Source: Nitrosopumilus sp.
Lineage (GTDB): Archaea; Thermoproteota; Nitrososphaeria; Nitrososphaerales; Nitrosopumilaceae
NCBI GenBank assembly: GCA_965214775.1
Contig: OZ243974.1
Location: 1,152,001-1,216,000 of the forward strand
Direction of reading: 5' to 3'
Length of the DNA: 64,000 nt
Within the stretch, counting starts at the first letter, position 1. Each line of letters opens with the position of its first letter. The translations under genes and the position numbers were made by a program. Below the pieces are notes generated by a model. The model saw only the letters and a program-made list of their open reading frames with translations, was not told where the DNA came from and made no database searches. This document shows, piece after piece, positions 7,401 to 43,145 of this stretch.

Positions 7401-10400
7401 GGCACCGGCACCACACAGGGCACGGTAACGGTAACAGTCACGCGCGACAACAACGATCCCGTTCTGGGTACCATAGGAGACCAGACGGCTACTCCGGATG
7501 TTCAATTAACCATAACGCCGACTGTAACTGACGCCGATCCTACCGATACGCACACGTACTCGATATCTCGCGGCACGCTGCCGGCAGCCGCCGCATTTAC
7601 TGCATCTGACGGCACCCTCGTCTGGACGCCCGTATCGGCTGATGCCGGGCAGACTCACGAGGTTACAATAACGGTAAATGATGGCCGCAGCGGTACCGAC
7701 TCGGAGACATTTGACATAGTTGTGCCCGCCGCAATCACGCTTACCCCGGTCGGGAGTCTGGACGACAGCCCGCAACTGCTACTTCACGGCGCCTTTGGCG
7801 TGGACGTATTCACGATAGGCAGCAACACCTACGCGGTCGTCGCCTCCGAATACGATGACGGCATCCAGCTAGTTGACATCACCAACCCTGCCAGTCCTGC
7901 AGCCGCCGGCAGTCTGAACGATACGGGTTCCACGGTGCTTGACGGCCCCCAGGGCGTGGACGTCTTTACGATAGGCAGCAACACCTATGCGGCAGTGGCC
8001 TCCTTCGTCGATGGCGGCATCCAGATCATAGACATCACCAACCCTGCCAGTCCTGCAGCCGCCGGCAGTCTGACCGATACGGGTTCCAGTGTGCTTGACG
8101 GCGCCCGCGATGTGGACGTCTTTACGATAGGCAGCAACACCTACGCGGCCGTCGTCTCCCTCGACGAAGACGGCATCCAGCTAGTTGACATCACCAACCC
8201 TGCCAGTCCTGCAGCCGCCGGCAGCCTGGACGATACGGGTTCCACGGTGCTTGGCGGCGCCCGCGGTGTGGACGTCTTTACGATAGGCAGCAACACCTAT
8301 GCGGCAGTGGCCGCCGAATACGAAGACGGCATACAACTAGTGGATGTCACCAACCCTGCCAGTCCTGCAGCCGCCGGCAGCCTGAAAGAAGGTCAAGGTG
8401 GCTCTCAGGACCTTGACGGTTCATATGCTGTGGACACCTTCACGATAGGCAGCAACACCTACGCAGCAGTGGTTGGCGAAGCAGATAACGGCCTCCAGAT
8501 TGTAGACATCACCAATCCTGCCAGTCTCACGGCCACGGGAAGTATAGGGGATACCGGCACCACGCGGCTTAAAAGTCCACGCGGTGTGGATGTATTCACG
8601 ATAGACAGCAGTACTTATGCAATCGTTGCATCCGCCCATAACAACGGCATCCAGCTAGTTGACATCACCAATCCTGCCAGTCCTATCCAAGCCGGGAATC
8701 TGGGGGATACGGGCTCCTTGGAGCTCCTCAGTCCACGCGGCGTGGCCGTCTTTACAATTGGACAAGACGTCTACGCGGCAGTTGCCGCCTTTGGCGACCA
8801 CGGCCTCCAGCTGGTGAGGCTGGGCGGGGAGGCAGAGACGCCCAACAGTCTGCCGGTGGCACCTGACGAGACGGCAACCACCGCAGAGGATACGCCCATT
8901 ACCATAACGCCTGCAATATCGGATCCGGACACATCGGATACCCCGATGATATCGGCAGTAGAGAACCCGCCAAACGGGACTGTTATACATGATGATACCA
9001 CCATAACTTATACGCCTGATCAGGGCTATACGGGCACCGATACGTTCGGATATACGGTAACTGATGGCACCGACTCTGTACAAGGCACGGTAACGGTAAC
9101 CGTCACACGCGACAACAACACCTCAAAGGCAATATCTGACCTGCTAAGCATCTACCACGCAAGGCCAGACCTGCAGGCAGCATACCCGGAGGCCGGCTCC
9201 GGCGACGATATGACGAGACTACTCAGATGGGCATGGCAGTACGGAATTGTTGACTATCCTGCAGACCCCAACGGCCCACATGCAGTCCTGGGCCCGCACG
9301 CGCACACCTATGCACTGCTCTCCATATACGACGCAAGGCCCGACCTGCAGGCAGCATACCCGGAGGTCGTGGCAGGCGATCGTGACGCACTGACTGTCTG
9401 GGCGCGCGACTGGGGAATCAACGACTATCCGGATGATCCCGTGGGTCCTGCCGCAGTCCTGGGCCCGCACGCGCACACCTATGCACTGCTCTCCATATAC
9501 GACGCAAGGCCCGACCTGCAGGCAGCATACCCGGAGGTCGTGGCAGGCGATCGTGACGCACTGACTGTCTGGGCGCGCGACTGGGGAATCAACGACTATC
9601 CGGATGATCCCGTGGGTCCTGCCGCAGTCCTGGGCCCGCACGCGCACACCTATGCACTGCTCTCCATATACGACGCAAGGCCCGACCTGCAGGCAGCATA
9701 CCCGGAGGTCGTGGCAGGCGATCGTGACGCACTGACTGTCTGGGCGCGCGATTGGGGAATCAACGACTATCCGGATGATCCCGTGGGTCCTGCCGCAGTC
9801 CTGGGTCCGCACGCGCACACCTATGCACTGCTCTCCATATACGACGCAAGGCCGGATCTGCAGGCAGCATACCCGGAGGTCGTGGCAGGCGATCGTGACG
9901 CACTGACTGTCTGGGCGCGCGATTGGGGAATCAACGACTATCCGGATGATCCCGTGGGTCCTGCCGCAGTCCTGGGTCCGCACGCGCACACCTATGCACT
10001 GCTCTCCATATACGACGCAAGGCCGGATCTGCAGGCAGCATACCCGGAGGTCGTGGCAGGCGATCGTGACGCACTGACTGTCTGGGCGCGCGATTGGGGA
10101 ATCAACGACTATCCGGATGATCCCGTGGGTCCTGCCGCAGTCCTGGGTCCGCACGCGCACACCTATGCACTGCTCTCCATATACGACGCAAGGCCGGATC
10201 TGCAGGCAGCATACCCGGAGGTCGTGGCAGGCGACCACACAGCACTGACTGTCTGGGCGCGCGACTGGGGAATCAACGACTATCCGGATGATCCCGTGGG
10301 TCCTGCCGCAGTCCTGGGTCCGCACGCGCACACCTATGCACTGCTCTCCATATACGACGCAAGGCCGGATCTGCAGGCAGCATACCCGGAGGTCGTGGCA

Positions 10401-10499
10401 GGCGATCGTGACGCACTGATCAAGTGGATACGGGATTACGGGATAACTGAATATCCGTCTGTCCTAGGCCCATATGCACACATCTATGGTAGAGACTAA
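4413..10499 (+). CDS. Giant secreted surface protein 1: signal/TM segment, three LVIVD-like repeat blocks (probable beta-propellers), Ig/cadherin-like domains, 8 C-terminal 57-aa RPDL repeats
   Basis: Hydrophobic segment ending EAYA|Q; ~50-aa 'TYAAVAS..DDGIQIVDITNP' repeats; 'TTAEDTPVTI..YTPDQ.Y.GTDTF.YTV.DG' Big_9-like domains. The true start may be somewhat downstream. Confidence 0.9.
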   Translation: MRPDILAGCRQLRTVRRGMHMHMRHRARTESVACGLPHLRCPSHRASASAPVLYLVLIAAAVSCLAVAGGLQEAYAQSSVEVSPVGDLENNNSRLLDGATGVDVFTIGDRTYAVVAARDDDGIQIVDITNPASPTAAGKLGDDNSRLLDGAHGVAIFTIGDRTYAVVAARFSDGIQIVDITNPASPAAAGNLADTEGDNELLLDGARGVDTFTIGSKTYAAVASFIDDGIQIVDVSNPASPAAAGNLGNTGSLELDGATGVDVFTKGGKTYAAVASWLDDGIQVVDVSNPASPAAAGNLGDRGIRELDGAIGVAAFQRGSKAFLAVASVDDDGFEIVDVTSPHGPTAAGRLDDDGSRLLDGAYGVDVFTIGSRTYAAVASSVDDGIQIIHVSDPTAAHTVGKLGDNNSLELDGATDVDVFTIGGGTYAAVVSQNDDGLQMVIIGKQGAPEFASATLDDNTGTMTITFSEVIDVSDTDLSKIYVSDAGQTNGVSMSGATFDDAVPDSETISITLTRAQLDGIAAMRVPQLDIAAGAVEDHAGHHIGTARDKTVTTASPDSPIPAGRLPDGAGLYLEKSRGVDTFTIGSNAYAVAVSSTEDGLQIVDITNPARLTPAGNMRDAHNSLLDGARAVDTFTKGSKTYATVASHAEDGIQIVDVSNPASPKPTGNMGVYASSRLLDGANGVSNFKIDGGTYAAVTSQYDGGLQIIDVTKPNNPAESGRLEDSTSRLLEDTSSVDTFRRGGSTYAVVASWGDDGLEIIDVSNPSSPAETGRLADDNDVLLRGIRAVDAFEAGGSAYVAVASHGENGLQIVDVSDPANPSPAGNLVDASNRLLGGASGVEIFVVDQAIYAAVASQSDDGLQIVDVSDPDNPAEAGSLRDGPGLSLDAARDLSVFTRNGDTYAVVASDTEGLQTVKLAEAPNSPPVAPDETATTAEDTPVTITPAISDPDTSDTPVISAVVDPPNGSATHDDDTITYTPDQDYEGTDTFEYTVSDGTGTTQGTVTVTVTRDNNDPVLGTIGDQTATPDVQLTITPTVTDADPTDTHTYSISRGTLPAAAAFTASDGTLVWTPVSADAGQTHEVTITVNDGRSGTDSETFDIVVPAAITLTPVGSLDDSPQLLLHGAFGVDVFTIGSNTYAVVASEYDDGIQLVDITNPASPAAAGSLNDTGSTVLDGPQGVDVFTIGSNTYAAVASFVDGGIQIIDITNPASPAAAGSLTDTGSSVLDGARDVDVFTIGSNTYAAVVSLDEDGIQLVDITNPASPAAAGSLDDTGSTVLGGARGVDVFTIGSNTYAAVAAEYEDGIQLVDVTNPASPAAAGSLKEGQGGSQDLDGSYAVDTFTIGSNTYAAVVGEADNGLQIVDITNPASLTATGSIGDTGTTRLKSPRGVDVFTIDSSTYAIVASAHNNGIQLVDITNPASPIQAGNLGDTGSLELLSPRGVAVFTIGQDVYAAVAAFGDHGLQLVRLGGEAETPNSLPVAPDETATTAEDTPITITPAISDPDTSDTPMISAVENPPNGTVIHDDTTITYTPDQGYTGTDTFGYTVTDGTDSVQGTVTVTVTRDNNTSKAISDLLSIYHARPDLQAAYPEAGSGDDMTRLLRWAWQYGIVDYPADPNGPHAVLGPHAHTYALLSIYDARPDLQAAYPEVVAGDRDALTVWARDWGINDYPDDPVGPAAVLGPHAHTYALLSIYDARPDLQAAYPEVVAGDRDALTVWARDWGINDYPDDPVGPAAVLGPHAHTYALLSIYDARPDLQAAYPEVVAGDRDALTVWARDWGINDYPDDPVGPAAVLGPHAHTYALLSIYDARPDLQAAYPEVVAGDRDALTVWARDWGINDYPDDPVGPAAVLGPHAHTYALLSIYDARPDLQAAYPEVVAGDRDALTVWARDWGINDYPDDPVGPAAVLGPHAHTYALLSIYDARPDLQAAYPEVVAGDHTALTVWARDWGINDYPDDPVGPAAVLGPHAHTYALLSIYDARPDLQAAYPEVVAGDRDALIKWIRDYGITEYPSVLGPYAHIYGRD
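9130..10496 (+). repeat. 171-bp (57-aa) tandem coding repeat, 8 units
   Basis: Near-identical units HAHTYALLSIYDARPDLQAAYPEVVAGDRDALTVWARDWGINDYPDDPVGPAAVLGP. Confidence 0.97.
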
Positions 10500-10512
10500 A
10501 TGTCTTAAAACG

Positions 10513-10642
10513 GGGGTTGTCGCCTAATTCCACCTGCCGGACTCAATCCGCACATTTTTCTGAATCTCCACCATTTTTGCACGCCTAGTCCGGATAACAT
10601 CATATGATTTTCAGAAATTCTGATGAATTAGGCGACAACCCC
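10513..10642. mobile_element. 130-bp MITE of the GGGGTTGT (IS5-like) family
   Basis: TIR GGGGTTGTCGCCTAATTC; 9-bp TSD CTTAAAACG; the empty site is present downstream of the paralogue at ~22216. Confidence 0.93.
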
Positions 10643-10756
10643 CTTAAAACGTAACAGGCTCATGTATGAACACGATATCGCGTATCTGACACCGGCCGCA
10701 TCCAGCTCGGAGATGACTGCTGCCGAAAAGAACTCGCGGTCTAGCATCACGGTAAT

Positions 10757-10857
10757 AGCTCGGGCTCTGGAAGCTGCTCCTAATTTCAGGCACGAGTCTG
10801 CCCGGGAGGCCTCTCCGAGGTGGCAAAACCCATGCCTGAACTTCCAGAACCCGAGCT
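10757..10857. repeat. ~100-bp palindromic dispersed element (copy 1)
   Basis: Nested inverted repeats AGCTCGGGCTCTGGAAG / CTTCCAGAACCCGAGCT and TTCAGGCA / TGCCTGAA; homologues at ~32452, ~49904 and ~52241. Confidence 0.8.
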
Positions 10858-11060
10858 GCTACGCATCGCGACTCCGAGATCGACCCCCGCGCGGCGTGCA
10901 GAATCGATGATTTTACGCACGAAATCGGCCGTATCCTCAAGGGGTCGGCATGTGCAGTGTTCCCAGCACAAGGCGGCAGTGGCTCACTATACACTGTGTG
11001 GTGATGTACTGCTAAAAGACTATCGTCCCACTCTTCTTCTTGGAGCGGATCAGCTCCCTG

Positions 11061-11197
11061 AGAGGTGATCCAAAATTAGAAACAATGTAAATTTTTCATG
11101 TAATTTCACAGATAGTTTGTATATTGTTGATGTTTTGAGCCGTTCTATGCAAATTCGTTCACAAATAATCAGAGTTTGCTAATTTCGAATCAACTCT
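11061..11197. mobile_element. 137-bp MITE (AGAGGTGATC family), copy 1
   Basis: Imperfect TIR AGAGGTGATCCAAAATTAG / CTAATTTCGAATCAACTCT; TSD CTG. Confidence 0.88.
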
Positions 11198-11398
11198 CTG
11201 AGATCGTCGGCAGCGAGCCCGAACGGCCAGTCCCACACGGAGGAGGACTCCATGACGTATTTGGCGTCCTCCGAAATCCCTGCAAACGCACTTCTTATCT
11301 CGCCGTCCTTGTTGCTGATTTTTGTGTTCCTCAGCACCTTGCCGCTCTTGTCCATCACCGCAACTTGGATGAACTCCTTGTACACGTCTAGGCCTACG

Positions 11399-12533
11399 TA
11401 GTATCCTCGGCTACCAATTGATCACAAAAAGGACAATTTTTTTCAACCAAAGGATCTAAGAGCTATTAGTCCCATATATACACATGAAAGGAAAGAAGGA
11501 ATTACCGACGGGAACAGCGTTCCTGTACGGGATAGCAAGCAAGGACGAGCTTTTTAGGATGCACAAGTCCGAGAAGGACGCCAAGGCGGCAATCCGGCTC
11601 CTTGCATACCACATGAGAAAGTGCGGCGCGAGCATATATGATATTGCCGAGAAGCTGAGCAGGCCGTATGGAACCGTACGATACTGGCTGGTGCGTGCGC
11701 ACAAGCATGGCCTGGAGGGCAGGTTTGACATAAAGCATGGCGCCCCGTGCAGGCTCGACAAGAAACAGCTTGAACGGCTGCGCGCAGACCTGATCAAGGG
11801 CCCGGACAACTGCGGCTTTAAGGCCACAACATGGACAGGGCCGCTGGTCATTGCCCACGTCAAAAAGAAGTTCGGCATCACGTATGCAGAAACGAGCATG
11901 TACGACCTGCTGCACAGAATCGGCTTCTCATGCAGAAAGCCCAGGCCAAAACACCCAAAATCAGCCTCAGAATCCGAGAAAAAGGAGTTCAAAAAAAAAG
12001 CTAGGCAGAGCGCAAAGTACTATTCAAAAAAGGGGTACACGGTAATGATAGGCGACGAGTCCATGTTCATACTGGGATGGAACGTCAAGAACAGCTGGTA
12101 CCCCGTAGGAGAGCCGGTCTATACGCCCGTCAGCCTGTCCAGGAAGCGGTTCTATGTCATAGGGGCCCTCTCAAGAAACAGGTTTGACTATCGCTTTTAC
12201 GAAAAGGCCAACACGGGAACGTTCTACAAGTTTCTCAGGACACTGCGCCGCAAGTACGGCAAGGTGTTGTTGTTTGTCGACAACGCATCGTACCACAAGT
12301 CAGCAGAACTCAATAGAAAGATGGCCAAGTGGAACGGGGACGTGGTGCTAAAGTACCTGCCGCCGTACGCGCCGGAGCTTAACAACTCGGAGGGGCAGTG
12401 GCGCGGGTTCAAAAAGGCGACTTCAAACTGCCTTTACAAGACCGTCAAGGAGATGCAGAGATCACTGCGCAGTATGACGCGCAGGGGCGAGATAAAGGTG
12501 GTAAAGATGAACAAATAGCTGACGTAGATACTA
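11399..12533 (+). mobile_element. IS630-family element A, copy 1
   Basis: Ends TAGTATC...GATACTA with CG duplicated on both sides; a second copy lies at 39942-41074. Confidence 0.9.
11484..12518 (+). CDS. IS630 transposase
   Basis: HTH, GDES, VDNASYHKS and LPPYAPELN.SE motifs. Confidence 0.92.
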   Translation: MKGKKELPTGTAFLYGIASKDELFRMHKSEKDAKAAIRLLAYHMRKCGASIYDIAEKLSRPYGTVRYWLVRAHKHGLEGRFDIKHGAPCRLDKKQLERLRADLIKGPDNCGFKATTWTGPLVIAHVKKKFGITYAETSMYDLLHRIGFSCRKPRPKHPKSASESEKKEFKKKARQSAKYYSKKGYTVMIGDESMFILGWNVKNSWYPVGEPVYTPVSLSRKRFYVIGALSRNRFDYRFYEKANTGTFYKFLRTLRRKYGKVLLFVDNASYHKSAELNRKMAKWNGDVVLKYLPPYAPELNNSEGQWRGFKKATSNCLYKTVKEMQRSLRSMTRRGEIKVVKMNK

Positions 12534-12655
12534 CGTACTGCTGCTACACCGCCTTTGGTTTCACGCGTGTCCTCTTTTTTGCGGTAATCTGCATGTTTGC
12601 ATTGCCTCTTATCTTGGCACCGCCTGAATTTCGTCTTTGAGGCACATATGGTTAC

Positions 12656-13555
12656 TTACTTGTTCTTTAAAATCATAAACACAAAGTCACTATCGATTAC
12701 TTTTTCTTTAATTAACAACTGCTCTGTGTTGTATAGCAGTTTTAGAATCAACGAGTCTTTTTCGTTGCTAGGATCAAAATTTCCTACAATACAGTCCATC
12801 GCAAATTGCAACAGCGTCCCGCCATACTTTCGTTCGTAAACTACTTTGAAATTTTCTTTTAGCAATCTTGTTATTTCTCCTGATCTGATGGACTCTGAAG
12901 GATCATCTTTTTCAATCACTGCCGGTTTTTCTCTGTACGTGCTTTTTCTAATTCTTCCATCAACCACGCTTGTTTTGTAATTATCCGTCAAGTTACTCAA
13001 AACCCAATTCATTAATTCGACTTGTTTGTCGGTAAACTGATATCGTGACGGCCCAACATACTCATTTATTATGAACAGCCCCTCTGGCTTGAGGGCCCGT
13101 CTTACCTCCCCGAACAGCTCTTCTAATCTCTCTACGTGATGTATCGAATGCCATCCAAAAATTGCATCAAACGACCCTTTTTCTAATTTTATATTGTTAA
13201 GATTCGCCTCTTCATACTCTATGCTTTGAGCCAGTCCGTCTCTTGCAGCTTCCTTTTTTGCGACTTTGATTGCATCTGCTGATATGTCGACTCCCTTACA
13301 CCGTTTTGCGGTACCGTTGGCCGTGATTATTCTTTCTAAACGGCCGCTGCCTGAACCTAGGACTAGGGCACTGTCAAACTCCCCGAATTCTTTCAAAAAT
13401 GCAAATATGTCTACTGCCTCATTGCCTGTTATGGCTTTGTTGATACACTGAATTAGGGTGGGATGTGCACTCCAATGTTTTCGGGGCATGTCTGTTAGCG
13501 ACTCGTTTGCGCATTTTCCCCAAACGTCGTTGACTTTTTCCTTGTACGAGGTCAG
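12656..13555 (-). CDS. Class I SAM-dependent methyltransferase (start uncertain)
   Basis: VLGSGSG, GVDISADAI, FDAI..HSIHHV and ALKPEG motifs. The ORF extension to 13741 runs into an IS relic. Confidence 0.85.
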   Translation of the reverse strand: MTSYKEKVNDVWGKCANESLTDMPRKHWSAHPTLIQCINKAITGNEAVDIFAFLKEFGEFDSALVLGSGSGRLERIITANGTAKRCKGVDISADAIKVAKKEAARDGLAQSIEYEEANLNNIKLEKGSFDAIFGWHSIHHVERLEELFGEVRRALKPEGLFIINEYVGPSRYQFTDKQVELMNWVLSNLTDNYKTSVVDGRIRKSTYREKPAVIEKDDPSESIRSGEITRLLKENFKVVYERKYGGTLLQFAMDCIVGNFDPSNEKDSLILKLLYNTEQLLIKEKVIDSDFVFMILKNK

Positions 13556-13669
13556 TCCATCTCCCCCCCCGGCAAGCGTGAAAATAGCCGGCGTGCAAAT
13601 TCGTGTCGAGTTGCAAGGAACGCGACCCGTACTTTTGACGTGCTGTCCATTTGAATCATTGCCTGATCT

Positions 13670-14500
13670 CAGTAGATGAAAATGTACCCTCCTTTTTAAA
13701 TGTCTGATTGTTTTGACAGTAGATGAAAATGTACCCCGCAAATCCGTCTAACCGGGATCGTGCAGCCGCCGCCCAGCCCCGATCCTGCCTGCATCTGGCA
13801 CAGAGGCAGCACGAATACAGGATCACAACATACATGAGTCAGCAGTGTCATGACGCGGGTCTTTGGATCGGCCGAGTCCCTCATTGTCAGCCATATGTTG
13901 CATACTGCAAGCTACACGTAAAACAAAAGCATCCGCATGACAGGATTCCTGCTGACGGTCTGTGGCCTGACGCTCTTGGCACAGCGATATCCCGTCTCGA
14001 TACCCCACCTATTTTGATACTCTTTTGTCACATAGTGAAACAACTGCCGGTAGCCGTGGCAGTGTACCGTGGTCGCAAACACGGGCATCTGTCAAAGATG
14101 TTATTTGCCGTGGACTTTGGGATCTTCCTGATGACCAGAGTGAACGTGAATCTCCTGCCGTCTGATAGCTTTATGGCATACCTTGATACTGCCTTTCTCT
14201 TGTCGCAGGCACGCTGTACGATGGCCTGCTTTATTTATCCCCGGCGTCTTGACTGCAGAGAGGTGATCCGAAATTAGAAACCGTGCGAATTTTTCAAGTA
14301 ATTTCACAGATAATCTGTATTTTGTTGGTGTTTTGAGCCGTTTTATGCAAATTCGTTCACAAATAATCAGAGTTTGCTAATTTCGAATCAACTCTCAGGC
14401 ATGATGAATGCAAACCCGGCGCCGTATATGACATCCATTACGTCTACTGAAAAGAACCCCCTGTCAAGCAGGGTGACGCTTTGCCTTGACCCAGGCCTGG
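13670..14500 (-). pseudogene. Degraded ISH3/IS4-like transposase relic
   Basis: LLDRGFFSVDV on the minus strand at ~14440-14470; CAG...TGAAAATGTACCC TIR-like ends at 13670 and 13718. Confidence 0.65.
14259..14395. mobile_element. 137-bp MITE (AGAGGTGATC family), copy 2
   Basis: Homologous to 11061-11197; TSD CAG. Confidence 0.88.
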
Positions 14501-14530
14501 ACGTAATGCCCAGATCGGCGCATTTTTGGA

Positions 14531-15290
14531 GTAACCATATGTGTCTCAAAAACAAAATTCAGATGGTACCAAGATAAAAGGCAATGCAAACAGACAGATT
14601 AGCGCAAAAAAAAGGATATGTGTGAAATCAAAGGCGGAGCAGCAGTATGTCGGCCTGGACGTGCACAAGGAGTCCATCCAGGTCGCGGTGATGGACAAGG
14701 ACGGCAAGGTCCTGGGGAATACAAAAATAAGCAACAGGAACAGCGAGATAAGAGAGATGTTTGCAAAGATTCCGGATAACACCAGGTGCGTCATGGAGTC
14801 CTCGTATGCTAAAGAAATAGATGGCCTTCAGTCAGTGCATAGTGGACATGCGTGTGAAATGAACGTCATCATCATTATTATTATTGTCATTACAGTTAGA
14901 ACTTTAATCTGCGTTGATGTAGTTGAGGGAGATCCTCGTTTAGTAACTGCAGAACGGTTCTGACAAATGGATGAAGAATGGTACTGAGGGAGATCCTCGT
15001 ATAGATAAGTGTCCGACCTTCATTTTGTGATTGTCAGGAAGAGACCCCCAGCCAAAGCCATACTTCACAACACCGTTACGCGTGGAATCCTTATAAGCAC
15101 GACACATAGATAACTGCAGAACGGTTCTGACAAATGGATGAAGAATGGTACTGAGGGAGATCCTCGTATAGATAAGTGTCCGACCTTCATTTTGTGATTG
15201 TCAGGAAGAGACCCCCAGCCAAAGCCATACTTCACAACACCGTTACGCGTGGAATCCTTATAAGCACGACACATAGATACAACATCAGGT
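14531..15290 (+). mobile_element. Internally deleted IS110-family element with structured 3' non-coding region
   Basis: GTAACCATATG end; YVGLDVHKESIQVAV N-terminus fused to a C-terminal remnant; near-identical inverted copy at ~58617-59389. Confidence 0.72.
14944..15277 (+). repeat. 167-bp perfect tandem duplication
   Basis: 14944-15110 is identical to 15111-15277; only one unit is present in the inverted copy near 58810-58980. Confidence 0.95.
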
Positions 15291-15475
15291 CCTTTTTATA
15301 CTGACAAGCCAACTTTTCTGGGCAGCGTCTTATGATCAGATGCCCTTGCAGACATGGCTGAGCATCAGACATTTGTGACCAGTCATTGCAGGATTGGAAT
15401 TTGCTGGGGTGATCCATTATCGGCATCCTAGTCAAAGAATTCCGATGGAAATCTTTTTTGATCTTGCCTGGTTGA

Positions 15476-15750
15476 TCTATTGTACGAAAATTAGGTCGCA
15501 CTAATTTGAAGAGGATTGCAAAGGATTACTTTAGGCTTTACCGATCAAGAAAACCGATGGTTACAAGGCTCGAGGCAAAGCAGATCAGATACGCAGTGAC
15601 GCAGTGTGCAGGGGGACGAAAGCCCTCGGAGGTGGCCCCGGAGATAGGCGTCACGACAAGGCACGTCCAGCGGATGCATGCCCGGTTCAAGAAGACAGGC
15701 GACACGCACCACGTGCCGCTCAAGCCGGGAAGGAAAAGGAGCGCTCTGGT
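15476..15750 (+). pseudogene. IS481-family left end and transposase N-terminal fragment
   Basis: TCTATTGTACGAAAA end as at 24827; HTH 'TTRHVQRMHARF'. Confidence 0.75.
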
Positions 15751-16121
15751 TCCCGACGGGGGCGTTTTTATCATGTGTTCAACAACAGTCTAACCCCGAA
15801 TACATCTTTATTAATTACGCCGGGTTTAATGATAATATCAGAATGAGCGCGTTATACACTACCACACTGTCGGTCACCGTTATCAAAACCCCACATGATC
15901 ACTGGGGGGGGGTAGTTGACCCGGGCCCTGCCGTCGGGGCTGGGAAGGGGCCCTCGTTCCGGCGGCTATGAAAGGCTGGCCTGCGGTTCGGATCCTGACG
16001 GCACAGGGGCCGCCATGCATGGGGGTCTTGCCCGTGCGGACTGCTGCAGGTGGCTTGTACAGGACAACAAATCAGGCTACGACATGGGAGGCAACACTAC
16101 AGAGTCCGGAGGTAATCTGCC

Positions 16122-25885: not shown

Positions 25886-26065
25886 ACAACCCCCGGTGGG
25901 ACAACACAGTTATTTACAAGCAGGCAGGAGAGAAATATTATGTTAGAGTACAAGGGGCATGTTTTTCAAATTTTACAGTCATTTTACGTGAAACGGTTCG
26001 GACAGCCCTTGCACAAACAAAATACACTACATGCAGCAGAGTACGTAGCACCAGTGTGATGAGAC

Positions 26066-26719: not shown

Positions 26720-26956
26720 TACAAAAAGCAAAAAGCATAGGTCTGACTGGGGCCGTATCCTAGCCCATCAGAATTTTTGAAGTATTGGGTTAGGTGTAAG
26801 CGTTTAGGTTGAGCACGAGGCCAATTTTTGATCACCACTTGGATTCACATGTACCAAGACTGCCCCTAGATTCATTGCCTGATTCAAAGACCAAGATACT
26901 GCGCGACAAGCTGGGCCTACGTCACAGCGGAGCTCTACAAGACACGAAGCTCCGTG

Positions 26957-27050
26957 GCTGTCCAAAAAAATTTCCGCGAAATGACCGCTAGGTTATGGAT
27001 CATGGGCGTGCGGCACCGAAAGTGATTTTGATCAGCCGATTTTGTCTATA
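26957..27050 (+). mobile_element. Degenerate left end of the IS5-like element
   Basis: Inverted homology to 24725-24818. Confidence 0.65.
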
Positions 27051-27079
27051 CTGAGGTGATCCGAAATCAGAAGTCGTAC

Positions 27080-27162
27080 TATAGCAACGGGCATAAGCCT
27101 TTGAGTCAAAGTAGGTTATAACTACACGTAAAAAACCTCAATTATTTCTGCTCGTTGTTATA
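27080..27162. mobile_element. ~83-bp IS630-type MITE
   Basis: TIR TATAGCAACGGGCA / TGCTCGTTGTTATA. Confidence 0.85.
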
Positions 27163-27195
27163 CAATACAAACTACTTTTACACAAGGTTTTTTAG

Positions 27196-27858
27196 TTGTC
27201 TGTTGCACTAAAAAAAATGGCAAAACCGCCACTGCTGGCCTCTGTTATTGCATCTGCCGTACTGATGTTTTTGGCGCCTGTCTCCGGATCATCTCTTGGC
27301 GTGTATGCGCAGGATGTCTCACCGCCGGGGAAGGGGCCCGGCGGAAACGATACAAGAACTGCCAGCCTTTGCTCCTCAGAGTCCGAATGCGTGCTAATTG
27401 CAAAGAACCATACGGGCAAGGACTCCAAAATATCCCAGTCGCTGCAACACCTCATCTCTAGGCCAGACATGCGGGGGGATGACCTTACCAGATCGGCGAT
27501 GGATACCGGGGCAATGGACGGTGAAAAGATACCGGTAATCATCCGTATAAAGTCCGGCTCAGAAGGGTTTGCATTTCCAAATGATCTCGGAATAGATGTG
27601 GTCGGAACATCAGGTCTTGGCATACATGCAGACATACCGGCCTCAAGCATACTGCGGCTGGCACAATATGACGAGATAGACCGGATAAGGATGGCGCCTG
27701 CGATGATCGAGGGGCAGACAGACAATCCGGTGACATCAGGCAACGATCTGCAGTTCGTGTGGGACTTGTCATATCTTCTGGTGCTGTTGATCCCCGCTGC
27801 CGTCGTCCTAGCAGTATGGCAAGCTAGAAGGGGAAAAAGGAGGATTGTCACGGCATAG
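27196..27858 (+). CDS. Secreted, C-terminally anchored protein resembling a subtilase prodomain
   Basis: Signal peptide; KISQSLQHL...IPVIIRI...IHADIPASSILRLAQYDEIDRIR; C-terminal TM helix plus RRGKRR. Overlaps the S8 gene. Confidence 0.75.
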   Translation: MSVALKKMAKPPLLASVIASAVLMFLAPVSGSSLGVYAQDVSPPGKGPGGNDTRTASLCSSESECVLIAKNHTGKDSKISQSLQHLISRPDMRGDDLTRSAMDTGAMDGEKIPVIIRIKSGSEGFAFPNDLGIDVVGTSGLGIHADIPASSILRLAQYDEIDRIRMAPAMIEGQTDNPVTSGNDLQFVWDLSYLLVLLIPAAVVLAVWQARRGKRRIVTA

Positions 27859-30184
27859 GCCCGCCATACTGGCATCATCGCTTGCAGCGACACCACTACT
27901 GATGCTGATATTCATGTTGTCACTCGGCCAACTCTATGCCATTGCACATGGCCAGTCCGTGACAAGCCAGGGCGTATACACCGTAGAGTCGCACATAGTA
28001 AACAGTTTGGGAAACAATGGCAGCGGGATCAAGGTGGCAGTGATAGACACCGGGTTTGACGTGGACGACGCGGAGATATCATCTAACATAGCGGAGGCCA
28101 GATCGTTTCGCTCAGACGGCGACATTACGGCGGGGGGACGCACCAATCACGGGACTGCGACCGCGCAGATAGTCGTAGACGTCGCCCCCGGAGCCGAGCT
28201 GTACCTTTACAACGTCGGATCCGTGCCAAACATGATAAGGCTGATCGACTATATCATGGCAAGAGGGGACATTGACATCGTCAGCCTGTCCGTGGCATGG
28301 TGGGGCGTAGGGCCGTATGACGGGACCAGCGAGCTCTCACAAAAGGTGAGCGAGGCGCAGGACAGCGGGATACTGTGGGTATCCTCGGCCGGAAACTTTG
28401 CAGACAGTCACTGGGAGGGCACGTTCTCAGACGCAGACGCAGACGGGTTTCACAACTTTGGAACTATGGATGAGACAATATCGATCCTCGCCGAGGAGGG
28501 CTCCGTGGTGGAGCTGGAGCTCACATGGGACGACGCGTGGGGCCGGTCTGCCAACGACTATGAGCTGCGTCTCTATGACGATAACCTGAACCTGTTGATC
28601 TCCTCCATTACTACACAGGACGGCGATGACGACCCGCTTGAAACAATACAGTACCTTATTGGATCCGACGGCGTATACAACATAGTGATAGAGCGCTATT
28701 CAGGCGAGGCTAGGAACCTAGAGCTGTTCAGCTTTGGACATCCCCTTGCGGAGCACAACGTATCCGGGGGCAGCGTGATAATCCCGGCTGATGCTGCAGG
28801 CTCAGTTGGGGTAGCAGCCGTCGGTCACGACACGGAGCTGCTAAAGTCATACAGCTCGCGCGGACCCACAAACGACGGCAGGACAAAGCCGGACATCGCT
28901 GGGCCGACGGATGTGACCACGAGCGTGTACGACTCCTTTGGAGGCACGTCGGCTGCGGCCCCCCACGTCGCAGGGGTAGCAACTCTGATAAAGTCGGCCA
29001 ACCCGGCATACACACCTGACCAGATCCGGTCGATTCTGGAAGACACCACGAGGAACCACCACGAAAAGAACAACGAGGACGGAACCGGGCTGGCAAACGC
29101 AGTAAACGCCGTGGTCATGTCTGACGGATCAGCAAAGACAATGTCTGACCTACTGGGTATCTATTATGCCAGGATCGATCTGCAGGCCGCATATCCTGAG
29201 GCTGCCTCCGGCGACATGGCCGGGCTGGTCAGGTGGGCCTGGCAGTACGGAATTGTCGACTATCCCAGGGATCCGGCAGGCCCGCATGCCGTCCTGGGCC
29301 CGCACGCGCACACCTACGCACTGCTACATGTTTGGAACCAGAGGTCGGATCTGCAGGCAGCATATCCTGAGGCTGCCTCCGGCTACATGGCTGGGCTGAC
29401 GGTCTGGGCGCGCGACTGGGGAATCACCGATTATCCGGCAGACCCATTCGGCCCGCATGCCGTCCTGGGCCCGCACGCGCACACCTACGCACTGCTCTCC
29501 ATATACGACGCAAGGCCGGATCTGCAGGCCGCATATCCTGAGGCTGCCTCCGGCGACATGGCCGGGCTGGTCAGGTGGGCCTGGCAGTACGGAATTGTCG
29601 ACTATCCCAGGGATCCGGCAGGCCCGCATGCCGTCCTGGGCCCGCACGCGCACACCTACGCATTGTCCATCATCTATGACGCAAGACCAGATCTGAGAGC
29701 CGCATATCCCGATGTCGTGGCAGGCGATCGCGCAGCACTGACTGTCTGGGCGCGCGACTGGGGAATCAACGACTATCCGGATGATCCGGTGGGTCCTGCA
29801 GCGGTTCTGGGCCCGCACGCGCACACCTACGCACTGCTCTCCATATACGACGCAAGACCGGATCTGCAGGCAGCATATCCTGAGGCTGCCTCCGGCGACA
29901 TGGCCGGGCTGACGGTCTGGGCGCGCGACTGGGGAATCAACGACTATCCGGATGATCCGGTGGGTCCTGCAGCGGTTCTGGGCCCGCACGCGCACACCTA
30001 CGCACTGCTCTCCATATACGACGCAAGGCCGGATCTGCAGGCCGCATATCCTGAGGCTGCCTCCGGCGACATGGCCGGGCTGACTGTCTGGGCGCGCGAC
30101 TGGGGAATCAACGACTATCCGGATGATCCGGTGGGTCCTGCAGCGGTTCTGGGCCCGTACGCACACGACTATGGTGATGATTAA
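27845..30184 (+). CDS. Secreted S8 (subtilisin-like) serine protease with PPC-like insert and 6 C-terminal RPDL repeats
   Basis: Catalytic motifs VAVIDTG, NHGT, SAGN, KPDIAGP and GTSAAAPHVAG. Confidence 0.93.
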   Translation: MSRHRPAILASSLAATPLLMLIFMLSLGQLYAIAHGQSVTSQGVYTVESHIVNSLGNNGSGIKVAVIDTGFDVDDAEISSNIAEARSFRSDGDITAGGRTNHGTATAQIVVDVAPGAELYLYNVGSVPNMIRLIDYIMARGDIDIVSLSVAWWGVGPYDGTSELSQKVSEAQDSGILWVSSAGNFADSHWEGTFSDADADGFHNFGTMDETISILAEEGSVVELELTWDDAWGRSANDYELRLYDDNLNLLISSITTQDGDDDPLETIQYLIGSDGVYNIVIERYSGEARNLELFSFGHPLAEHNVSGGSVIIPADAAGSVGVAAVGHDTELLKSYSSRGPTNDGRTKPDIAGPTDVTTSVYDSFGGTSAAAPHVAGVATLIKSANPAYTPDQIRSILEDTTRNHHEKNNEDGTGLANAVNAVVMSDGSAKTMSDLLGIYYARIDLQAAYPEAASGDMAGLVRWAWQYGIVDYPRDPAGPHAVLGPHAHTYALLHVWNQRSDLQAAYPEAASGYMAGLTVWARDWGITDYPADPFGPHAVLGPHAHTYALLSIYDARPDLQAAYPEAASGDMAGLVRWAWQYGIVDYPRDPAGPHAVLGPHAHTYALSIIYDARPDLRAAYPDVVAGDRAALTVWARDWGINDYPDDPVGPAAVLGPHAHTYALLSIYDARPDLQAAYPEAASGDMAGLTVWARDWGINDYPDDPVGPAAVLGPHAHTYALLSIYDARPDLQAAYPEAASGDMAGLTVWARDWGINDYPDDPVGPAAVLGPYAHDYGDD
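29140..30175 (+). repeat. 171-bp tandem coding repeat, 6 more divergent units
   Basis: Same family as the repeats in the two giant proteins. Confidence 0.95.
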
Positions 30185-30200
30185 GAGGCACATGTTATGT

Positions 30201-30320
30201 CAGTCTTCCCAGAAGTGCCACATCGAATCATCCTAGGCTCGAAACAATTCAAATGAGAATGCCTGCAGATCCGCATGTCGTCTACTGCACCACCACAGTC
30301 GGTTACTTTTGGGAATGCTG
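30201..30320. mobile_element. 120-bp CAGTCTTCCC MITE; supplies the stop codon of the giant GT
   Basis: TIR CAGTCTTCCCAGAAGT; homologues at 37583, 46529, 52599 and 55996 (partial). Confidence 0.8.
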
Positions 30321-33300
30321 GTCTGCGTCCCGTTGCACCTTGGCAGTTTCTAGTGCTGCCGACGGAATGCTGGCTTCTTTTGTCAGTATCTGCGTCAGGG
30401 TATCGCGAACTAGTTCCGGGGAATAGTGGGAATTGGCAAAGGCAAGGGAGTTTTTTGAGAGCGTATTCCACAAGGATTCATCAGTGTATGCTGAGATCGC
30501 CCTGTCTACAAATTCGGCAGGGTCGTCTCCAACCAACAGGATCTTGTCGTCATCTGACATACCCTCTGCCCCTATCGACGTCGTAACAACAGGCAACCCA
30601 TACGCAAAGCTACTAGTGATCTTTCCCTTAATCCCGGCCCCATATGTCAGAGGAACCAGCATGATCCTGCAGCGGTTGAGGTGTCCCTCTATGTCCGGTA
30701 GGTGTCCGAGAAAGGCGACGTTTTTGGTACCGGTGCACAGATCCCTGATCTTTTTGGACGCATTGCTTCCTATAACGTACAGCCTGACATCGGGCAGGCG
30801 CTCTCTGATCTGTGGGAATATGCGACTTGTCAGATATTCAAGGGAATCTACATTTGGTGGGTGTGTAAACCCTCCCACAAACAGGAAATCCTTTCGTTTT
30901 TCAAACGGTACGGGACTCTTTTGTGGAATCTGCAGCGGCGGAATTACGGCGACCGACAGGCCGGGATCCTCGTTTAGCAGGAATCTTGCCTCCTTGAGGC
31001 TACGGACTATGACCATATCTGACTTGCCGATAAGAGACAATTCGCCTTTGCTGTTCCTGCTTGCAGCAGTTATCTGTGATGGGTCTTGGGACAGTACGGC
31101 CATCCTGTACTCGCGGACAAAGTGAAGATCCGTAGTGTCGTAGACTATCTTGCATCCTGGCGCGTGTCTTTTGAGACGGTCAAAATATCTTGCGGTGATA
31201 TGAGGCCTTGAGGCAAAACAGACGTGAAAGGTCTCCTTGCGTCCTTTCAAAAACTCCTCAAAGTCGCGGTTTCCGTAGACGACCTCGATTCCCTTCTGCT
31301 GCAGCTCCGTAGCATATGGCTCTGTTCTGGCCAAGTTATCTGGCCAGAAGGTGACGTTGTGGTTCATGGATGCCAAGATTGAGATCACATAGTACGCAGT
31401 AAGCGAGCCCGCGTCGCGATCGTACTCTGGGACGAAGTGATCTATGTAGAGTATGTTGAGGCCGGCAGTGCGGTTCCTCTCAAAGAATACGTTCTTTGGC
31501 GAGTCTGGATGACGGCTTTGTATGATCCCTTCCCATTTTTTCATGTATCTATCCTTGTTTGTGACTTGGAATGACTTTATTCCCTGTGAGGTGTCGGTGC
31601 CTTGGGTCCTGCCTTCGTGGTGGATGAAACAGGCCATGGGCTGGTACAGGATGCTGTATCCCTTTTGCCTGATGGCCTGGCAGAGGTCATTGTCCTCCCA
31701 GTAGGCAACGTCGTATCCGGAGTCGAACCCTCCGTTCTCCTCGAAGATCTCCCGCCTGACCATCAGACATGCTCCAGAACAGTAGTCGACCTCCCTGACA
31801 AAGTTATACTCGGCCTTGTCCGGGTCGTCGCCTCTCCCGTAGTTCCATACGTTTCCGTTCCCCCAGACGATGCATCCGGCTTCCTGCAGGGTTCCGTCGG
31901 CAGACAGCAGCTTGCCTCCCACGGCACCCGTCCCCTCATTCAGGGCCAGCTTCAGCATGGCCTCCAGCCAGTTCGGCGAGGCCACCTCCATATCGTCGTT
32001 TAGAAAAACCAGATATTCGCCCCGGGCACTCTTGGATGCATGGTTGTTGATTTTTGCAAAGGAGTATTCGCCATCATAAATCAGAACCTTGTGCCTGATC
32101 CCGTCAAGGTATCGCCGCATCTCCGAATCTCCATCTTTGTTGTTTGTGACAATGATGATCTCATAGTTTTTGTATGTCGTCTTTGACTCTATAGACTCTA
32201 GGTTCTTTCTGAGATAATCGGTTTGGTTGAGGGTGGGGATGATTATGCTGACCTTTGGATTTCTTGGAAGCGTGAGGATTTCTGCCGATCCTATCTGAAT
32301 GTGCTCTCTCAGATCTTCGTCAGGCTCGGCGGGGTACTCGTTGCAGAATATCCTTGAGTTCAATTTGGGATCATCAAGTTTGATCGTCTCCGAGTATCGC
32401 CTGACTCTTTCGGACAGGATGTTGGTGGCAACATCCAAGGAGGGGGGGGGGGAAGGCTGCTCCAAAGTGGCAAAACCCATGTCTGAGCTTCTAGAGCCTG
32501 AGCTGTTGCAACTAAGAGACTGAAGGAAACCGTTGAGAATTTTCTCACCTACCTTAAGAGAATGGTATCTATCAAAATACGTTTTTCCATTTTGGCTGAG
32601 CCTTAACCAAAGATTCTCATCATCAAGAAGAGTGAAGACTGCATCGGCAAACTCTTCTTCATTGCTTGCGACAAGAACATCTTTTTTGCTTTTTAATTCA
32701 GTGCCGGCAAGTCCTAGAGGCGTCGTAATGACTGGAACGTTGAAGTTTAAAGACTCTAAGATTTTACCTTTTATTCCACCTACCACCATCATATATGCAA
32801 TGGTGGCAACAGCTCCGTCGTAATAAGGGAAAAGATCCTTTACAAAACCGGAAAAATGGATGTTAGAATTTTCCATTTTTGTTAGTTCTTTAGGCGGGTC
32901 ATTGCCTACAAAATACATCTCTATTGCAGGCATTTTTTTGAGAATAAGTGGAAATACGTCATCGATGATTTTTTTCGCGGACACCACGTTTGGGGTGTGA
33001 GAAAACCCACCCACAAAAAGAAGATACTTTCTCTCATTGAATTTTTTTACTGGCCTGGTATTTAAATGGCGAATGTCAGGAAGCAGTAAAAGTTTTTCGG
33101 AGGGAACAATTTTTTGTAACAGATTTATTTCTCGCTGGGTAATCACCATTAGGTGATCAGAGATATTGGTGAAATCTCTACCAAATTTAGTTAGTGTGTC
33201 TAGTGCTTTTTGATCATCGTCAACTTGTATGTTTTTATCTTGACTAACCAACCTGCAAAATCCGTAGAGATCATCAATATGGAGTAGAATTTTTGTTTGG

Positions 33301-36300
33301 GGGGAAGTAGTTTTAGACTGATGAAGATATTGTTTGCATTGAACAGAAGACATTCTGTTTGTATTGATAACTATCAAATCATAGTAATTTTTTCGATCTT
33401 CAAGCAAGACGGACACATCAAAATTTTGTGCGGGGATTATTTCAATCCCCAAACGTCGTAATCCGTCATTATATTCTGAGGCGCCATAGTGGCTTACAAA
33501 AAGTGTAATTTTTGAATTTAGCTGAGAAAGCAATTTTAGAATATTATACACGCGAAGATCTCCTCCGCTCTTATCGTGTTCTGTTATCCACCCATCAATT
33601 ACAAGAATTCTAACCGAATCGCGCATGTCCCGGGCAAGTAAAACGTTAGAGTCCGAAGGGATGTGCTTTGTAGAAAGGGCTTCCTTCCAAGTTTTCTGGA
33701 ATTTGGGGCGGTTGATTATCTCGAATCGCTTTGTACCGGAGGGATTTTGCGGATCCCTGGTTGAAGAAATTCCCTCATAGTGAACTATCGAAGAGAACGG
33801 AGTATACATGACACGTAGTGAGTTTTTGTGTGCGTTGAAACAAAGATCAACATCTTCATAATATGCAGGAATGTATTTTTCGCTAAATTTGCCCAATTTC
33901 TCAAAAATACTTTTCTTTACTAGTAAACATGCGCCAGAAACATAATCGACATCTCTAACAAAATTATATTCCGGTTTTAAATGATCATCATTTCTGCCAT
34001 ATGCTCGTGCTGATCCGTCATTCCAAATTATTGAACCTGCTTCCTGCAGACTGCCGTCAGGGTACAAGAACTTGGGTCCGACAATTCCAACTTTCTCATA
34101 ATGTTCAAAAATATCAAGTAAAGACTCTAACCAATTTTTTAACACAAGAGTGTCGTTGTTTAAAAACAACAGGTATTTTCCAACCGCATGGCATGATGCA
34201 AAATTATTTCCGGCAATAAACCCCAAATTAGATTTTAAATCAAACGATTTTGTATTTTTAATTTGTTTTAAAAGAAGCTTACTTGCGTTTTCAGTACAGC
34301 CGTTGTTGATTAGTATTATCTCATAAGGGATTTTGGTGTTATGTAAAACAGACGCAAGGCAATTAAATGTATATGCGGCTTTGTTATGATTTAGTATAAT
34401 TATAGAAACAATAGGCGAATCATGTTTTGGAAATGTTAGGACAGAGTTAGTGTTTGCGTATTCTAATTCTTCTCTAAATTGTTCAGCTACATTACTGCCT
34501 TCTATTTTGGGAATAAGAACCGGTTTGAATGTAAGTACTGAAGTTAAGCTAGATTTGTTCTTTTTAGCTATGAATTCCTCAATTAATTTTTTTAGACCAT
34601 GGGTTTTGGTGATGTACAAGCTAGATCTCATCACGCGTAAAAACTCGCCACTCCTAGTATTTGGCTTGAAAGTTCTATCTAGACTATTTGTAAATCCATT
34701 AAGAAATGAGAAAATCAGTGAGCTGTTGATTTGTTCTAATTCATATGCCAACGAATTATATTTTGATTGTAATTCTGCCAACTCGGAGTTTTTGTAAGTA
34801 ATCTGCTCTTTTAGAGAAAGTACACGCAAGTTTTTCGCGTCAACCTCTGCCTGTAGCCTCTTGACCATAGTGCCCAGCTCGGCCTTGTCGCCCTCCAGCG
34901 TGTCGACCTGCCTGCCCAGCTCGGCCTTGTCGCCCTCCAGCGTGTCGACCTGCCTGCCCAGCTCGGCCTTGTCGCCCTCCAGCGTGTCGACCTGCCTGCC
35001 CAGCTCGGCCTTGTCGCCCTCCAGCGTGTCGACCTGCCTGCCCAGCTCGGCCTTGTCGCCCTCCAGCGTGTCGACCTGCCTGCCCAGCTCGGCCTTGTCG
35101 CCCTCCAGCGTGTCGACCTGCCTGCCCAGCTCGGCCTTGTCGCCCTCCAGCGTGTCGACCTGCCTGCCCAGCTCGGCCTTGTCGCCCTCCAGCGTGTCGA
35201 CCTGCCTGCCCAGCTCGGCCTTGTCGCCCTCCAGCGTGTCGACCTGCCTGCCCAGCTCGGCCTTGTCGCCCTCCAGCGTGTCGACCTGCCTGCCCAGCTC
35301 GGCCTTGTCGCCCTCCAGCGTGTCGACCTGCCTGCCCAGCTCGGCCTCCCTGTCTTGCAGCTTGGATGCCAGTGAGGAAGATTCTTCCGCTAGCCGAAAT
35401 GAAGAAAGCAGTGATTCGTAATAGTGCTTGTATTTTCTTAGTTTCACCTTGTGAGAATCCGTGGAATCATCTGAAATTGCCCATTCGAGGAGGCGTGTGT
35501 AATCTCCGTTCTTGACTTCCGGAAAGGCCTTCCGCAGATCCGGTCTCAAGCGGTATATTTTCAATAGTTCGTCTAGCTCGATCTTGTAGCTCTCCAGATC
35601 GATCCGGCTTGGCTGTTGATCAGATATACTGGCCTCTTCAACTCGCATTTTCTGCATCTGTGATCTGATAAATTCACTTGAATTTTCTTCATGTGTGTTT
35701 TTATAGCAAATTTGCAACAGATCAAGAGCAGCTGCGTCGGTTGTGATAATCAGCGAGAGCTCTAACCACACCATTGCATTTTCAAATTTGCCACTGTCCA
35801 TCAACACATTGCCCTGCAACAGGTATCTTGCGTGATCGCTTTTATCGTGTTCAATCATTCGATCTAAGATCTTGGAACACTCGTGGTATTCCTGCAAGTT
35901 ATACAGGCAGTTTGCACATCCCTCCAAGGCTGGAATGTATCCCCAATCTGTTTCAAGTATGCCCCTGTAAATTCTTAGTGCATCTGTCCACTTTGATGAC
36001 TCTGCCAGCTTGTCTGCGTTGTAAAGATCTAGCAACACTTGGTTCTTTGTTAGACAATACTTTGTAGTTATATGTTTATAGACAAAGTCCTTGTTTTTCT
36101 CCATCAGTATGCTGGAGTTGCGCGTCGAGCCCTGCGTGTTGATCCAGTATTCTCCAGTGGCTTTTGGAACTCGCACAAAATAGGCGTGCTTGGAAAACCT
36201 CCTTAGAACGTCCCAGTCCTCCCAAAAATCTAGTGCCTCATCATACCTCTCAACCTTGGACAGCTCCTTTCTGTGCACCACCGCAAAATTGGGTATGAAG

Positions 36301-37559: not shown

Positions 37560-37582
37560 GTATTAATAACATACTGCATGCC

Positions 37583-37703
37583 CAGTCTTCCCAGAAGTAC
37601 CGCATAAAATCATCCCGGGCCAGAAACAATTCAGATGAGGATGCCTGCAGATCTGCATGTCACCTACTGCACTGCCGTGAGTCGGTTACTTCTGGGAAGA
37701 CTG
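37583..37703. mobile_element. 121-bp CAGTCTTCCC MITE in the divergent GT/wzm intergenic region
   Basis: Perfect TIR CAGTCTTCCCAGAAGTA / TACTTCTGGGAAGACTG. Confidence 0.85.
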
Positions 37704-37747
37704 ACTATTACAGTCTAATATATATTGATATTTTTGGAAGCTCTGTT

Positions 37748-39270: not shown

Positions 39271-39329
39271 TTACGTTGTTGCGTTTTAACCACGGGTGTG
39301 AGGTCACGTAGTATTCACGGCTACCGTAT

Positions 39330-42009: not shown

Positions 42010-42054
42010 TATAGGTGTGTCAATTACGCATAAAGTCTAATATAATTATCGTCC

Positions 42055-43098: not shown

Positions 43099-43145
43099 CG
43101 ACAACATCAAACAGTTTAATACCGTACGCTGATGATGCCTAAAGC

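Follow-up and report, generated by a model that had tools for sequence, protein, structure and literature searches.

An uncatalogued helical module shared by secreted proteins and a multidomain glycosyltransferase of Nitrosopumilus, with a putative role in surface anchoring

How might an archaeon hold exported proteins at its surface when they have no C-terminal membrane anchor? The question is raised by a 64,000-nucleotide stretch of a Nitrosopumilus sp. genome (assembly GCA_965214775.1, contig OZ243974.1, positions 1,152,001 to 1,216,000; hereafter the window), in which three secreted proteins end in tandem copies of one small module and a giant glycosyltransferase (GT) carries a single copy of it. 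We found that this module is a real, uncatalogued domain family with no sequence match in Pfam, NCBIfam, or the PDB. On balance, we favor its being a helical accessory module of about 55 amino acids (aa) that most likely binds carbohydrate and is used as a noncovalent surface anchor.

The first array protein (4413..10499, + strand; 2028 aa) contains LVIVD propeller repeats (Pfam LVIVD, E = 1.5e-56) and Ig/cadherin-like domains (Big_9, Cadherin_5, He_PIG), has its only hydrophobic segment at residues ~46 to 74, and ends in eight modules (9129..10496, +), of which units 2 to 6 are identical in protein sequence. A second LVIVD/Ig protein of 2029 aa (16122..22211, +) ends in ten modules (20499..22208, +), and a secreted S8 (subtilase) protease (27845..30184, +; Pfam Peptidase_S8, E = 7.2e-33) ends in six (29138..30172, +), the last four of which were modeled. 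A sequence-only reading of this DNA had given the same unit counts and positions and had seen no C-terminal transmembrane (TM) segment on the three proteins; both statements were confirmed, each protein having a single hydrophobic segment near its N-terminus and none at its C-terminus. No RNA data set was listed as holding the S8 gene. Two more array proteins, with three and four units, lie ~300 kb away, and the whole genome holds 32 units in six proteins. The protease domain of these two, recognized by motif and without a Pfam match, is presumably S1-like; one of their genes has a stop and a short insertion in its N-terminal part.

The units share a hydrophobic core and a polar-aromatic set consisting of Y, R-x-D-L-Q, P-E, W-A, a later D, and a final Y. 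Among 39 units, 82 to 100% keep the Tyr, Arg, Asp, Gln, Trp, Glu, second Asp, and last Tyr, the conservation of the first five (Tyr, Arg, Asp, Gln, and Trp) being partly imposed by the selection pattern. The unit length of 57 aa read from the sequence holds as the period of the window arrays, but the final unit of both LVIVD proteins has ~51 aa, with a 7-aa loop missing, and the family core spans ~52 to 56 aa. Likewise, the description of the module as Trp/Tyr/His-rich was right about the aromatics (W+Y+F, 14 to 16% of unit residues) but not about His, which makes up only 1 to 2% and is no family feature. Searched against 1.84 billion representatives, a 10-unit profile matched 684 clusters (E ≤ 1e-3).

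The sequence-only reading recognized no named family for the module, and the Pfam, NCBIfam, PDB sequence, and fold searches agree. PDB sequence searches with the module gave no match (best E values, 0.61 and 0.42). The SLH profile gave no row at E ≤ 0.1 for the window proteins and units (Pfam/NCBIfam) and none for 39 units (NCBIfam) or 32 array proteins (Pfam, E ≤ 0.01). The CWB2 profile (Pfam) did not match the window proteins or the 32 array proteins, and the choline/glucan-binding repeat profiles (Pfam) did not match the window proteins. The copy number of the module, 1 to 10, also differs from the three tandem copies of CWB2. Candidates that did appear on the arrays were rejected: GlgB_N, DUF7511, and THB (Pfam) covered stretches of 9 to 18 residues, and these and the flagellin model PRK08541 (NCBIfam) had scores summed over the repeats and stayed under the cutoffs. 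No description of the module was found in a literature search whose scope lacked most subscription journals and supplements.

The similarity of the copy in the GT proved to be significant. This 2418-aa protein (30303..37559, - strand) has the order GT2-GT2-TPR-module-coiled coil-GT2-GT4-GT2-GT4; Pfam finds four GT2 and two GT1/GT4-type stretches, a TPR region at residues 519 to 596, and coiled-coil matches at residues ~700 to 950. Its lone module (35418..35573, -), at the position where the sequence-only reading had placed one homologous unit, stands directly N-terminal to the coiled coil. A hidden Markov model (HMM) built from 12 distinct secreted units alone finds it among 36,472 six-frame genome open reading frames (ORFs) with an independent E value of 5.3e-6, and the next nonarray match has an E of 1.3. 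It scores 35.0 bits, versus 11.4 for the best of 2,000 shuffles (1,629 reported) and -1.3 for the reversed unit. A profile-profile comparison of enzyme-type units with arrays gave 99.4% and E = 1.4e-21, although the two are not independent, as at least 7 of the 39 rows of the first alignment are extracellular units.

The helical nature of the module, also anticipated from the sequence, is also predicted by two AlphaFold2 models that contain helices only and no strand. Four units of the S8 array gave an all-helical model (pLDDT, 94.6; pTM, 0.89), each unit passing through its final helix into the opening helix of the next, and the lone GT unit, which folds by itself in the prediction, gave another (pLDDT, 90.7; pTM, 0.79). 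In Foldseek, neither the array nor the unit had a match at E ≤ 1e-3.

Within this genome, the arrays stand where related proteins have a TM anchor. Of the ten LVIVD proteins, eight have a C-terminal TM segment and two an array, and one of the two S8 proteases has a TM segment and the other an array; C-terminal TM segment and array are thus mutually exclusive among these paralogs. The maximum C-terminal hydropathy is 0.30 to 0.75 in the five array proteins versus 1.98 to 3.03 in nine TM-ended paralogs, and none of the five has a C-terminal hydrophobic segment with a basic tail (TM/archaeosortase type). The four S1-like proteins comprise two with arrays, one with another short repeat, and one with a stretch resembling the start of LamG. 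A secreted S1-like protease at L187 (G000:C1:2806494-2808746) ends in a short Gly/Asp/Trp repeat without a Pfam match, a candidate for another anchor module.

Across genomes, we examined 153 carriers (the best 150 of the 684 clusters plus 3 others, a set biased to multicopy proteins), 131 of which were covered by the Pfam scan. An N-terminal hydrophobic segment was found in 37, with a median of four units; they include S8 and S53-type proteases and HYR, cupredoxin, Fn3, spherulin, solute-binding, and FG-GAP proteins. In 31 of the 37, at most 30 aa separate the end of the module from the C-terminus, and in one a TM segment follows it. Fifteen carriers are polytopic, several with PMT_2 (GT-C-like), all with the module C-terminal; 36 are signal-less GTs, methyltransferases, and sulfotransferases; and 65 are fragments or were not assigned to a class. 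The enzyme partners are GT2, GT4, Methyltransf_24/rhamnosyl O-methyltransferase, sulfotransferase, pyruvyltransferase, TOD1/MUCI70, PMT_2-type GT-C, and a few radical-SAM proteins. All classed signal-less carriers with a Pfam enzyme match are GTs, methyltransferases, sulfotransferases, or radical-SAM proteins, and those whose loci were read lie mostly within polysaccharide gene clusters. The module therefore has the character of a discrete noncatalytic domain on carbohydrate-active enzymes, and it also co-occurs with CBM11.

Its position within the enzymes is stereotyped. Among the 57 modules found in 29 enzymes, 19 lie at the C-terminus, and of the remaining 38, 19 stand directly before a coiled coil versus a background of 11%; the coiled-coil score is a heuristic, and the window GT copy falls narrowly under its cutoff since its coil begins inside the unit. 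Many GTs have one module close to each end. In a different arrangement, an N-anchored protein (L195:1868-3088) has a module inserted mid-protein and lies beside an MBOAT gene, with which it forms what we take to be an AlgI/AlgJ-like pair.

Among the matches listed, full modules occur, by record title, in Nitrosopumilaceae, Nitrososphaeraceae, Bathyarchaeia, Thermoplasmata, and Acidobacteria, and GT4 proteins of Actinomycetota and Bacillota have a shorter version, frequently with wzm/wzt next to them. A DNA-pattern scan gave at least 119 stretches, 80 of them listed, so this taxonomic range is a lower bound. The module is rare and patchy: it occurs in 2 of the 401 genomes at the level of the phylum, 10 of 401 at that of the order, 5 of 151 at that of the genus, and 10 of 151 from a Thermoplasmata order. 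A single match was found in all six Acidobacteria genomes and in six genomes of the Thermoplasmata order searched, indicating that a second module-bearing partner is not required. Seven small Acidobacterial proteins (L049, L060, L070, L081, L082, L092, and L096) have one N-terminal module each; three were read as methyltransferases, two of them by Pfam, and wzt is close to the genes of five.

The GT belongs to a locus with a putative role in the synthesis and export of a glycan. Next to it lie wzm (37748-38524, +; Pfam ABC2_membrane) and wzt (38524-39270, +; Pfam ABC_tran), both found by profile search, the latter encoding 248 aa with the ATPase domain only. As in GTs of the WbbB/WbdD type, a coiled coil separates N- and C-terminal catalytic modules, and the layout suggests terminator-, ruler-, and polymerase-like parts; in orthologous layouts, a methyltransferase or sulfotransferase-like domain is found in the N-terminal part. 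The coiled coil contains a perfect 42-nucleotide (nt) repeat (14 aa, two heptads) in 11.4 copies (34871..35347, -), a candidate length-variable ruler that may tune the length of the glycan chain. Seed matches of this repeat number 11 in the window versus 8 in G957, a genome of another genus of Nitrosopumilaceae, and the two G957 paralogs of the GT have different repeat units.

G957 carries the locus as well. Collinear blocks of 95 to 99.9% identity, interrupted by different insertion sequence (IS) elements, make up a genomic island of ~40 kb (4174..45643) whose counterpart is G957:C2:1882391-1917086. Since a core aminotransferase gene is only 71% identical between the two genomes and flanking housekeeping-type stretches are ~80% identical, this indicates a recent horizontal transfer, in which the arrays, the GT, and wzm/wzt moved jointly between genera as one island; a simple cross-assembly is made less likely by IS insertions, substitutions, and numbers of repeats that differ between the two. 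The G957 copy of the second LVIVD gene continues straight into the S8 array (eight units), with the ~7.4 kb between them absent, a junction consistent with recombination between arrays. The module GT is split there into three ORFs with fewer 42-nt repeats. A paralogous G957 locus has wzm/wzt at 91% identity, a 2105-aa GT without the module, and an S8 gene split by an IS, with Ig and LamG at the end of its downstream part. LamG is also found at the C-terminus of a GT-C (PMT-type) membrane protein of the window (47957-50557), which has several paralogs here and in G957. The S8 stretch is present in contigs of four sequencing runs, from as many studies; in these contigs, 19 to 30 of 30 bins of GT-wzm-wzt were covered at near identity and the module bins were covered in three of the four, which speaks to presence at the sample level only, low-depth holes being uninformative.

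We favor glycan anchoring because the arrays replace TM anchors, the enzyme partners build or modify glycans, and the module has a stereotyped position before the coil; LamG filling the same slot, in the G957 S8 protein and the window GT-C, and the cotransfer of arrays, GT, and wzm/wzt also argue for it, as do the conserved residues of the units and the genomes with a lone copy. One or two copies on an enzyme would hold the glycan acceptor, and arrays of 3 to 10 copies would bind with enough avidity to retain adhesin-like proteins and proteases on the glycan coat of the cell. Within the window island, the polysaccharide exported by Wzm/Wzt is a possible ligand, which we put forward tentatively; for the family as a whole, the ligand cannot be tied to the Wzm/Wzt pathway and may, with slightly lower confidence, be a commoner surface glycan. 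An extended form of the proposal, also no stronger than tentative, is a transferable "coat-plus-clip" cassette in ammonia-oxidizing archaea, in which one helical domain reads the same polysaccharide twice: once inside the cell, as the part of the synthase that tops the ruler, and once outside, where avid arrays display adhesins and proteases. Recombination would swap arrays between cargo genes, and the whole island would move between genera.

A number of observations weigh against glycan anchoring or its ties to this locus. The net charge of the units varies by lineage, from acidic in the window to Lys-rich in G930. Two S1-like proteases have neither a TM segment nor an array, and some extracellular carriers (P0068, P0080, P0108, and a G1099 protein) have both module and TM segment. 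All-helical folds are uncommon among carbohydrate-binding modules (CBMs), and VIA-align found no structural relative at Z ≥ 5 among 48,161 chains (the array reached a Z of at most 3.5 and the unit one of 4.5). The SLH structure 8bz2_A, with a Z of 3.5 (root mean square deviation [rmsd] 4.1, 68 residues aligned) and of 3.8 (rmsd 4.0, 60 aligned), ties with unrelated helical proteins at noise level; such weak matches do not prove a new fold.

The strict coupling of arrays to module-bearing GT loci that the sequence-only reading had proposed was not supported by the comparison: arrays occur independently of such loci in G453, with five array proteins, and G930, with two in a genome 97% complete. 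No module-bearing cytoplasmic enzyme was detected along with the extracellular carriers in these two or in G668, G994, and G1099, which have one extracellular carrier each, and the Wzm profile found nothing convincing in G453, G930, or G668 while giving E < 1e-100 in both controls. Conversely, twelve archaeal genomes whose matched ORFs were read (G039, G423, G636, G817, G840, G870, G1110, G988, G1006, G989, G1016, and G465) have modules on signal-less ORFs only, and an array and a module GT were found together only in the window island, shared with G957. For the window array units, the GT unit of their own locus ranks 28th to 50th among 112, and they fall into a loose group with other secreted units; we relied on pairwise ranks alone, as a tree of the units (116 rows and 58 columns, built by a quick method) had 3 of 111 branches well supported and does not show how many times arrays arose. 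The paralogous G957 locus, where the GT lacks the module and the S8 cargo ends in LamG, fits a coupling of GT module and cargo tail but is a single case. It is possible that unassembled islands explain the missing partners in the five genomes, because these are metagenome-assembled genomes (MAGs) and Wzm is present in 22 of the 118 family genomes scanned, a set that leaves out two unpublished genomes. Because arrays and module GTs occur separately and units are not closest to their own GT, they do not form a conserved gene set, and the module is a mobile accessory domain.

The module might bind protein rather than glycan, capping the coiled coil or joining polymerase, terminator, and modifying enzymes inside the cell while clipping outside onto the S-layer, surface proteins, or itself. 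Such a docking or oligomerization role could explain why modules sit on two or three different enzymes per locus in G423, G840, G465, and G1016 and near each end of many GTs, and it suits the packing of units on each other in the array model; protein contacts do build polymerase-terminator complexes, according to PMC11231755. Small ORFs of 144 and 221 aa hold little besides the module, but these may be MAG gene fragments. We consider docking unlikely, as many genomes have a single module-bearing protein, the same protein partner is improbable both in the cytoplasm and outside, and the enzyme carriers concentrate on glycan work instead of being general.

The presence of the module on both faces of the membrane, with enzymes that use lipid-linked glycans (GT, GT-C, and MBOAT linked), its aromatic residues, and the replacement of TM anchors by arrays could also mean that it recognizes polyprenyl-phosphate-linked sugars or lipid head groups, the arrays making peripheral membrane proteins. 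We regard this as very unlikely: the window units are net acidic, N-glycosylation sequons in Thermoplasmata-type units are abundant in the secreted class (0.73 per 56 aa versus 0.22 in enzymes), and a module at the coiled-coil end of a ruler-type GT would be held off the membrane in the WbdD/WbbB model (PMC11231755). There is an even slighter chance that the arrays bind an external glycan of a host matrix or biofilm, as adhesive tips or targeting domains, with the GT neighborhood reflecting only a shared mobile island. The array units are indeed a secreted lineage distinct from the neighboring GT unit, and LamG is able to fill the same slot. However, in records titled as Thermoplasmata MAGs, arrays sit on proteins of solute-binding-like, propeller, and Fn3 types, which would more simply need to be retained on their own cell, and the covariation at the paralogous G957 locus points the other way.

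Further genes and repeats were noted in and around the island. A class I SAM methyltransferase is encoded at 12656..13741 (-; Pfam Methyltransf_11, E = 5e-20), and a similar gene sits between wzt and a module-bearing GT in G423. Genes for a GHMP kinase, an SIS isomerase, a GDP-sugar dehydratase, and an HAD phosphatase (42055..45459, +) presumably form a heptose-type nucleotide-sugar pathway. A second wzm/wzt pair (L002:16217-17636 and 19000-20000) lies ~3 kb before the window, its wzm apparently split by an IS. Overlapping the S8 start, a gene at 27196-27858 encodes a secreted 220-aa protein with a C-terminal TM anchor and no Pfam match, which is also conserved next to the S8 paralog of G957 and could, as a guess, be a separate propeptide or chaperone. 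The stretch at 26066-26719 encodes a truncated N-terminal part of the S1-like protease family with no protease domain after it; members of this family occur at L001 and at two further places in the genome. The noncoding DNA upstream of the second LVIVD gene contains an exact 167-nt tandem duplication (14944-15279). Transposase-like ORFs, intact and broken, recognized by sequence and copy number, interrupt the island (458-3852, 11484-12518, 22425-25861, 40288-41719, and 56259-58603), and short dispersed, MITE-like repeats of ~120 and ~87 bp (L001:16180-16300 and 18206-18292) have many copies in G000 and G957. The organism is an ammonia-oxidizing archaeon of the Nitrosopumilaceae, and its 2.8-Mb genome with many IS elements and ten LVIVD proteins suggests a sponge symbiont; LVIVD domains were noted in sponge Thaumarchaeota (PMC7848895).

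If glycan anchoring is right, archaea would have a noncovalent, glycan-based route of surface display, and many "anchorless" proteins would need to be reannotated. A glycan-gripping repeat would be common to Nitrososphaerales, Thermoplasmata, and Bathyarchaeia, forming a new carbohydrate-binding family without a solved relative, to which the coat-plus-clip form would add a new fold, and the accessory domain beside the chain-length rulers of many ABC-dependent glycan synthases would have a name. Even with a protein ligand, the module would still be a domain that no catalogue lists, with 684 or more clusters. Because it is small and confidently modeled, the anchor claim is cheap to test.

Known archaeal surface anchors include TM segments, lipid anchors, and archaeosortase tags. 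In Firmicutes, SLH and CWB2 are small helical repeats that end many secreted proteins and anchor them noncovalently to a surface glycopolymer. The module resembles them as a small helical terminal repeat on many unrelated secreted proteins, with the same anchoring proposed, but it differs in having no Pfam match, in its 1 to 10 copies rather than three, in its archaeal arrays, and in its fusion to glycan-making or glycan-modifying enzymes of the cytoplasm and membrane. Choline/glucan-binding repeats are ~20-aa beta-hairpin solenoids, aromatic C-terminal repeats on surface proteins and glycan enzymes; the module arrays are likewise C-terminal, aromatic, and found on both kinds of protein, whereas the unit is ~55 aa and helical, with no strand predicted. 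Like CBMs, the module is noncatalytic, aromatic-rich, shuffled, carried by glycan enzymes, often in tandem, and able to swap position with LamG; unlike them, it is all-helical and matches no solved CBM in sequence or fold, its carbohydrate binding being a prediction. Exported anchorless proteases of sponge archaea were read as diffusing away in PMC6790972. The closest parallel for the GT is the WbbB/WbdD/O7 ORF6 group, as described in PMC11231755, where Klebsiella O7 ORF6 has a predicted CBM in the stretch before the ruler and O4 ORF7 a TPR-like bundle. Like these, the window protein is a multidomain GT with N-terminal catalytic domains, a central coiled coil, C-terminal GT modules, adjacent wzm/wzt, and an accessory domain before the coil. 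Unlike them, it is archaeal, has six GT domains and a Wzt without a C-terminal extension, uses as its putative ruler a perfect 42-nt repeat whose length differs between genomes, and has an accessory domain from a new helical family, members of which recur on secreted proteins.

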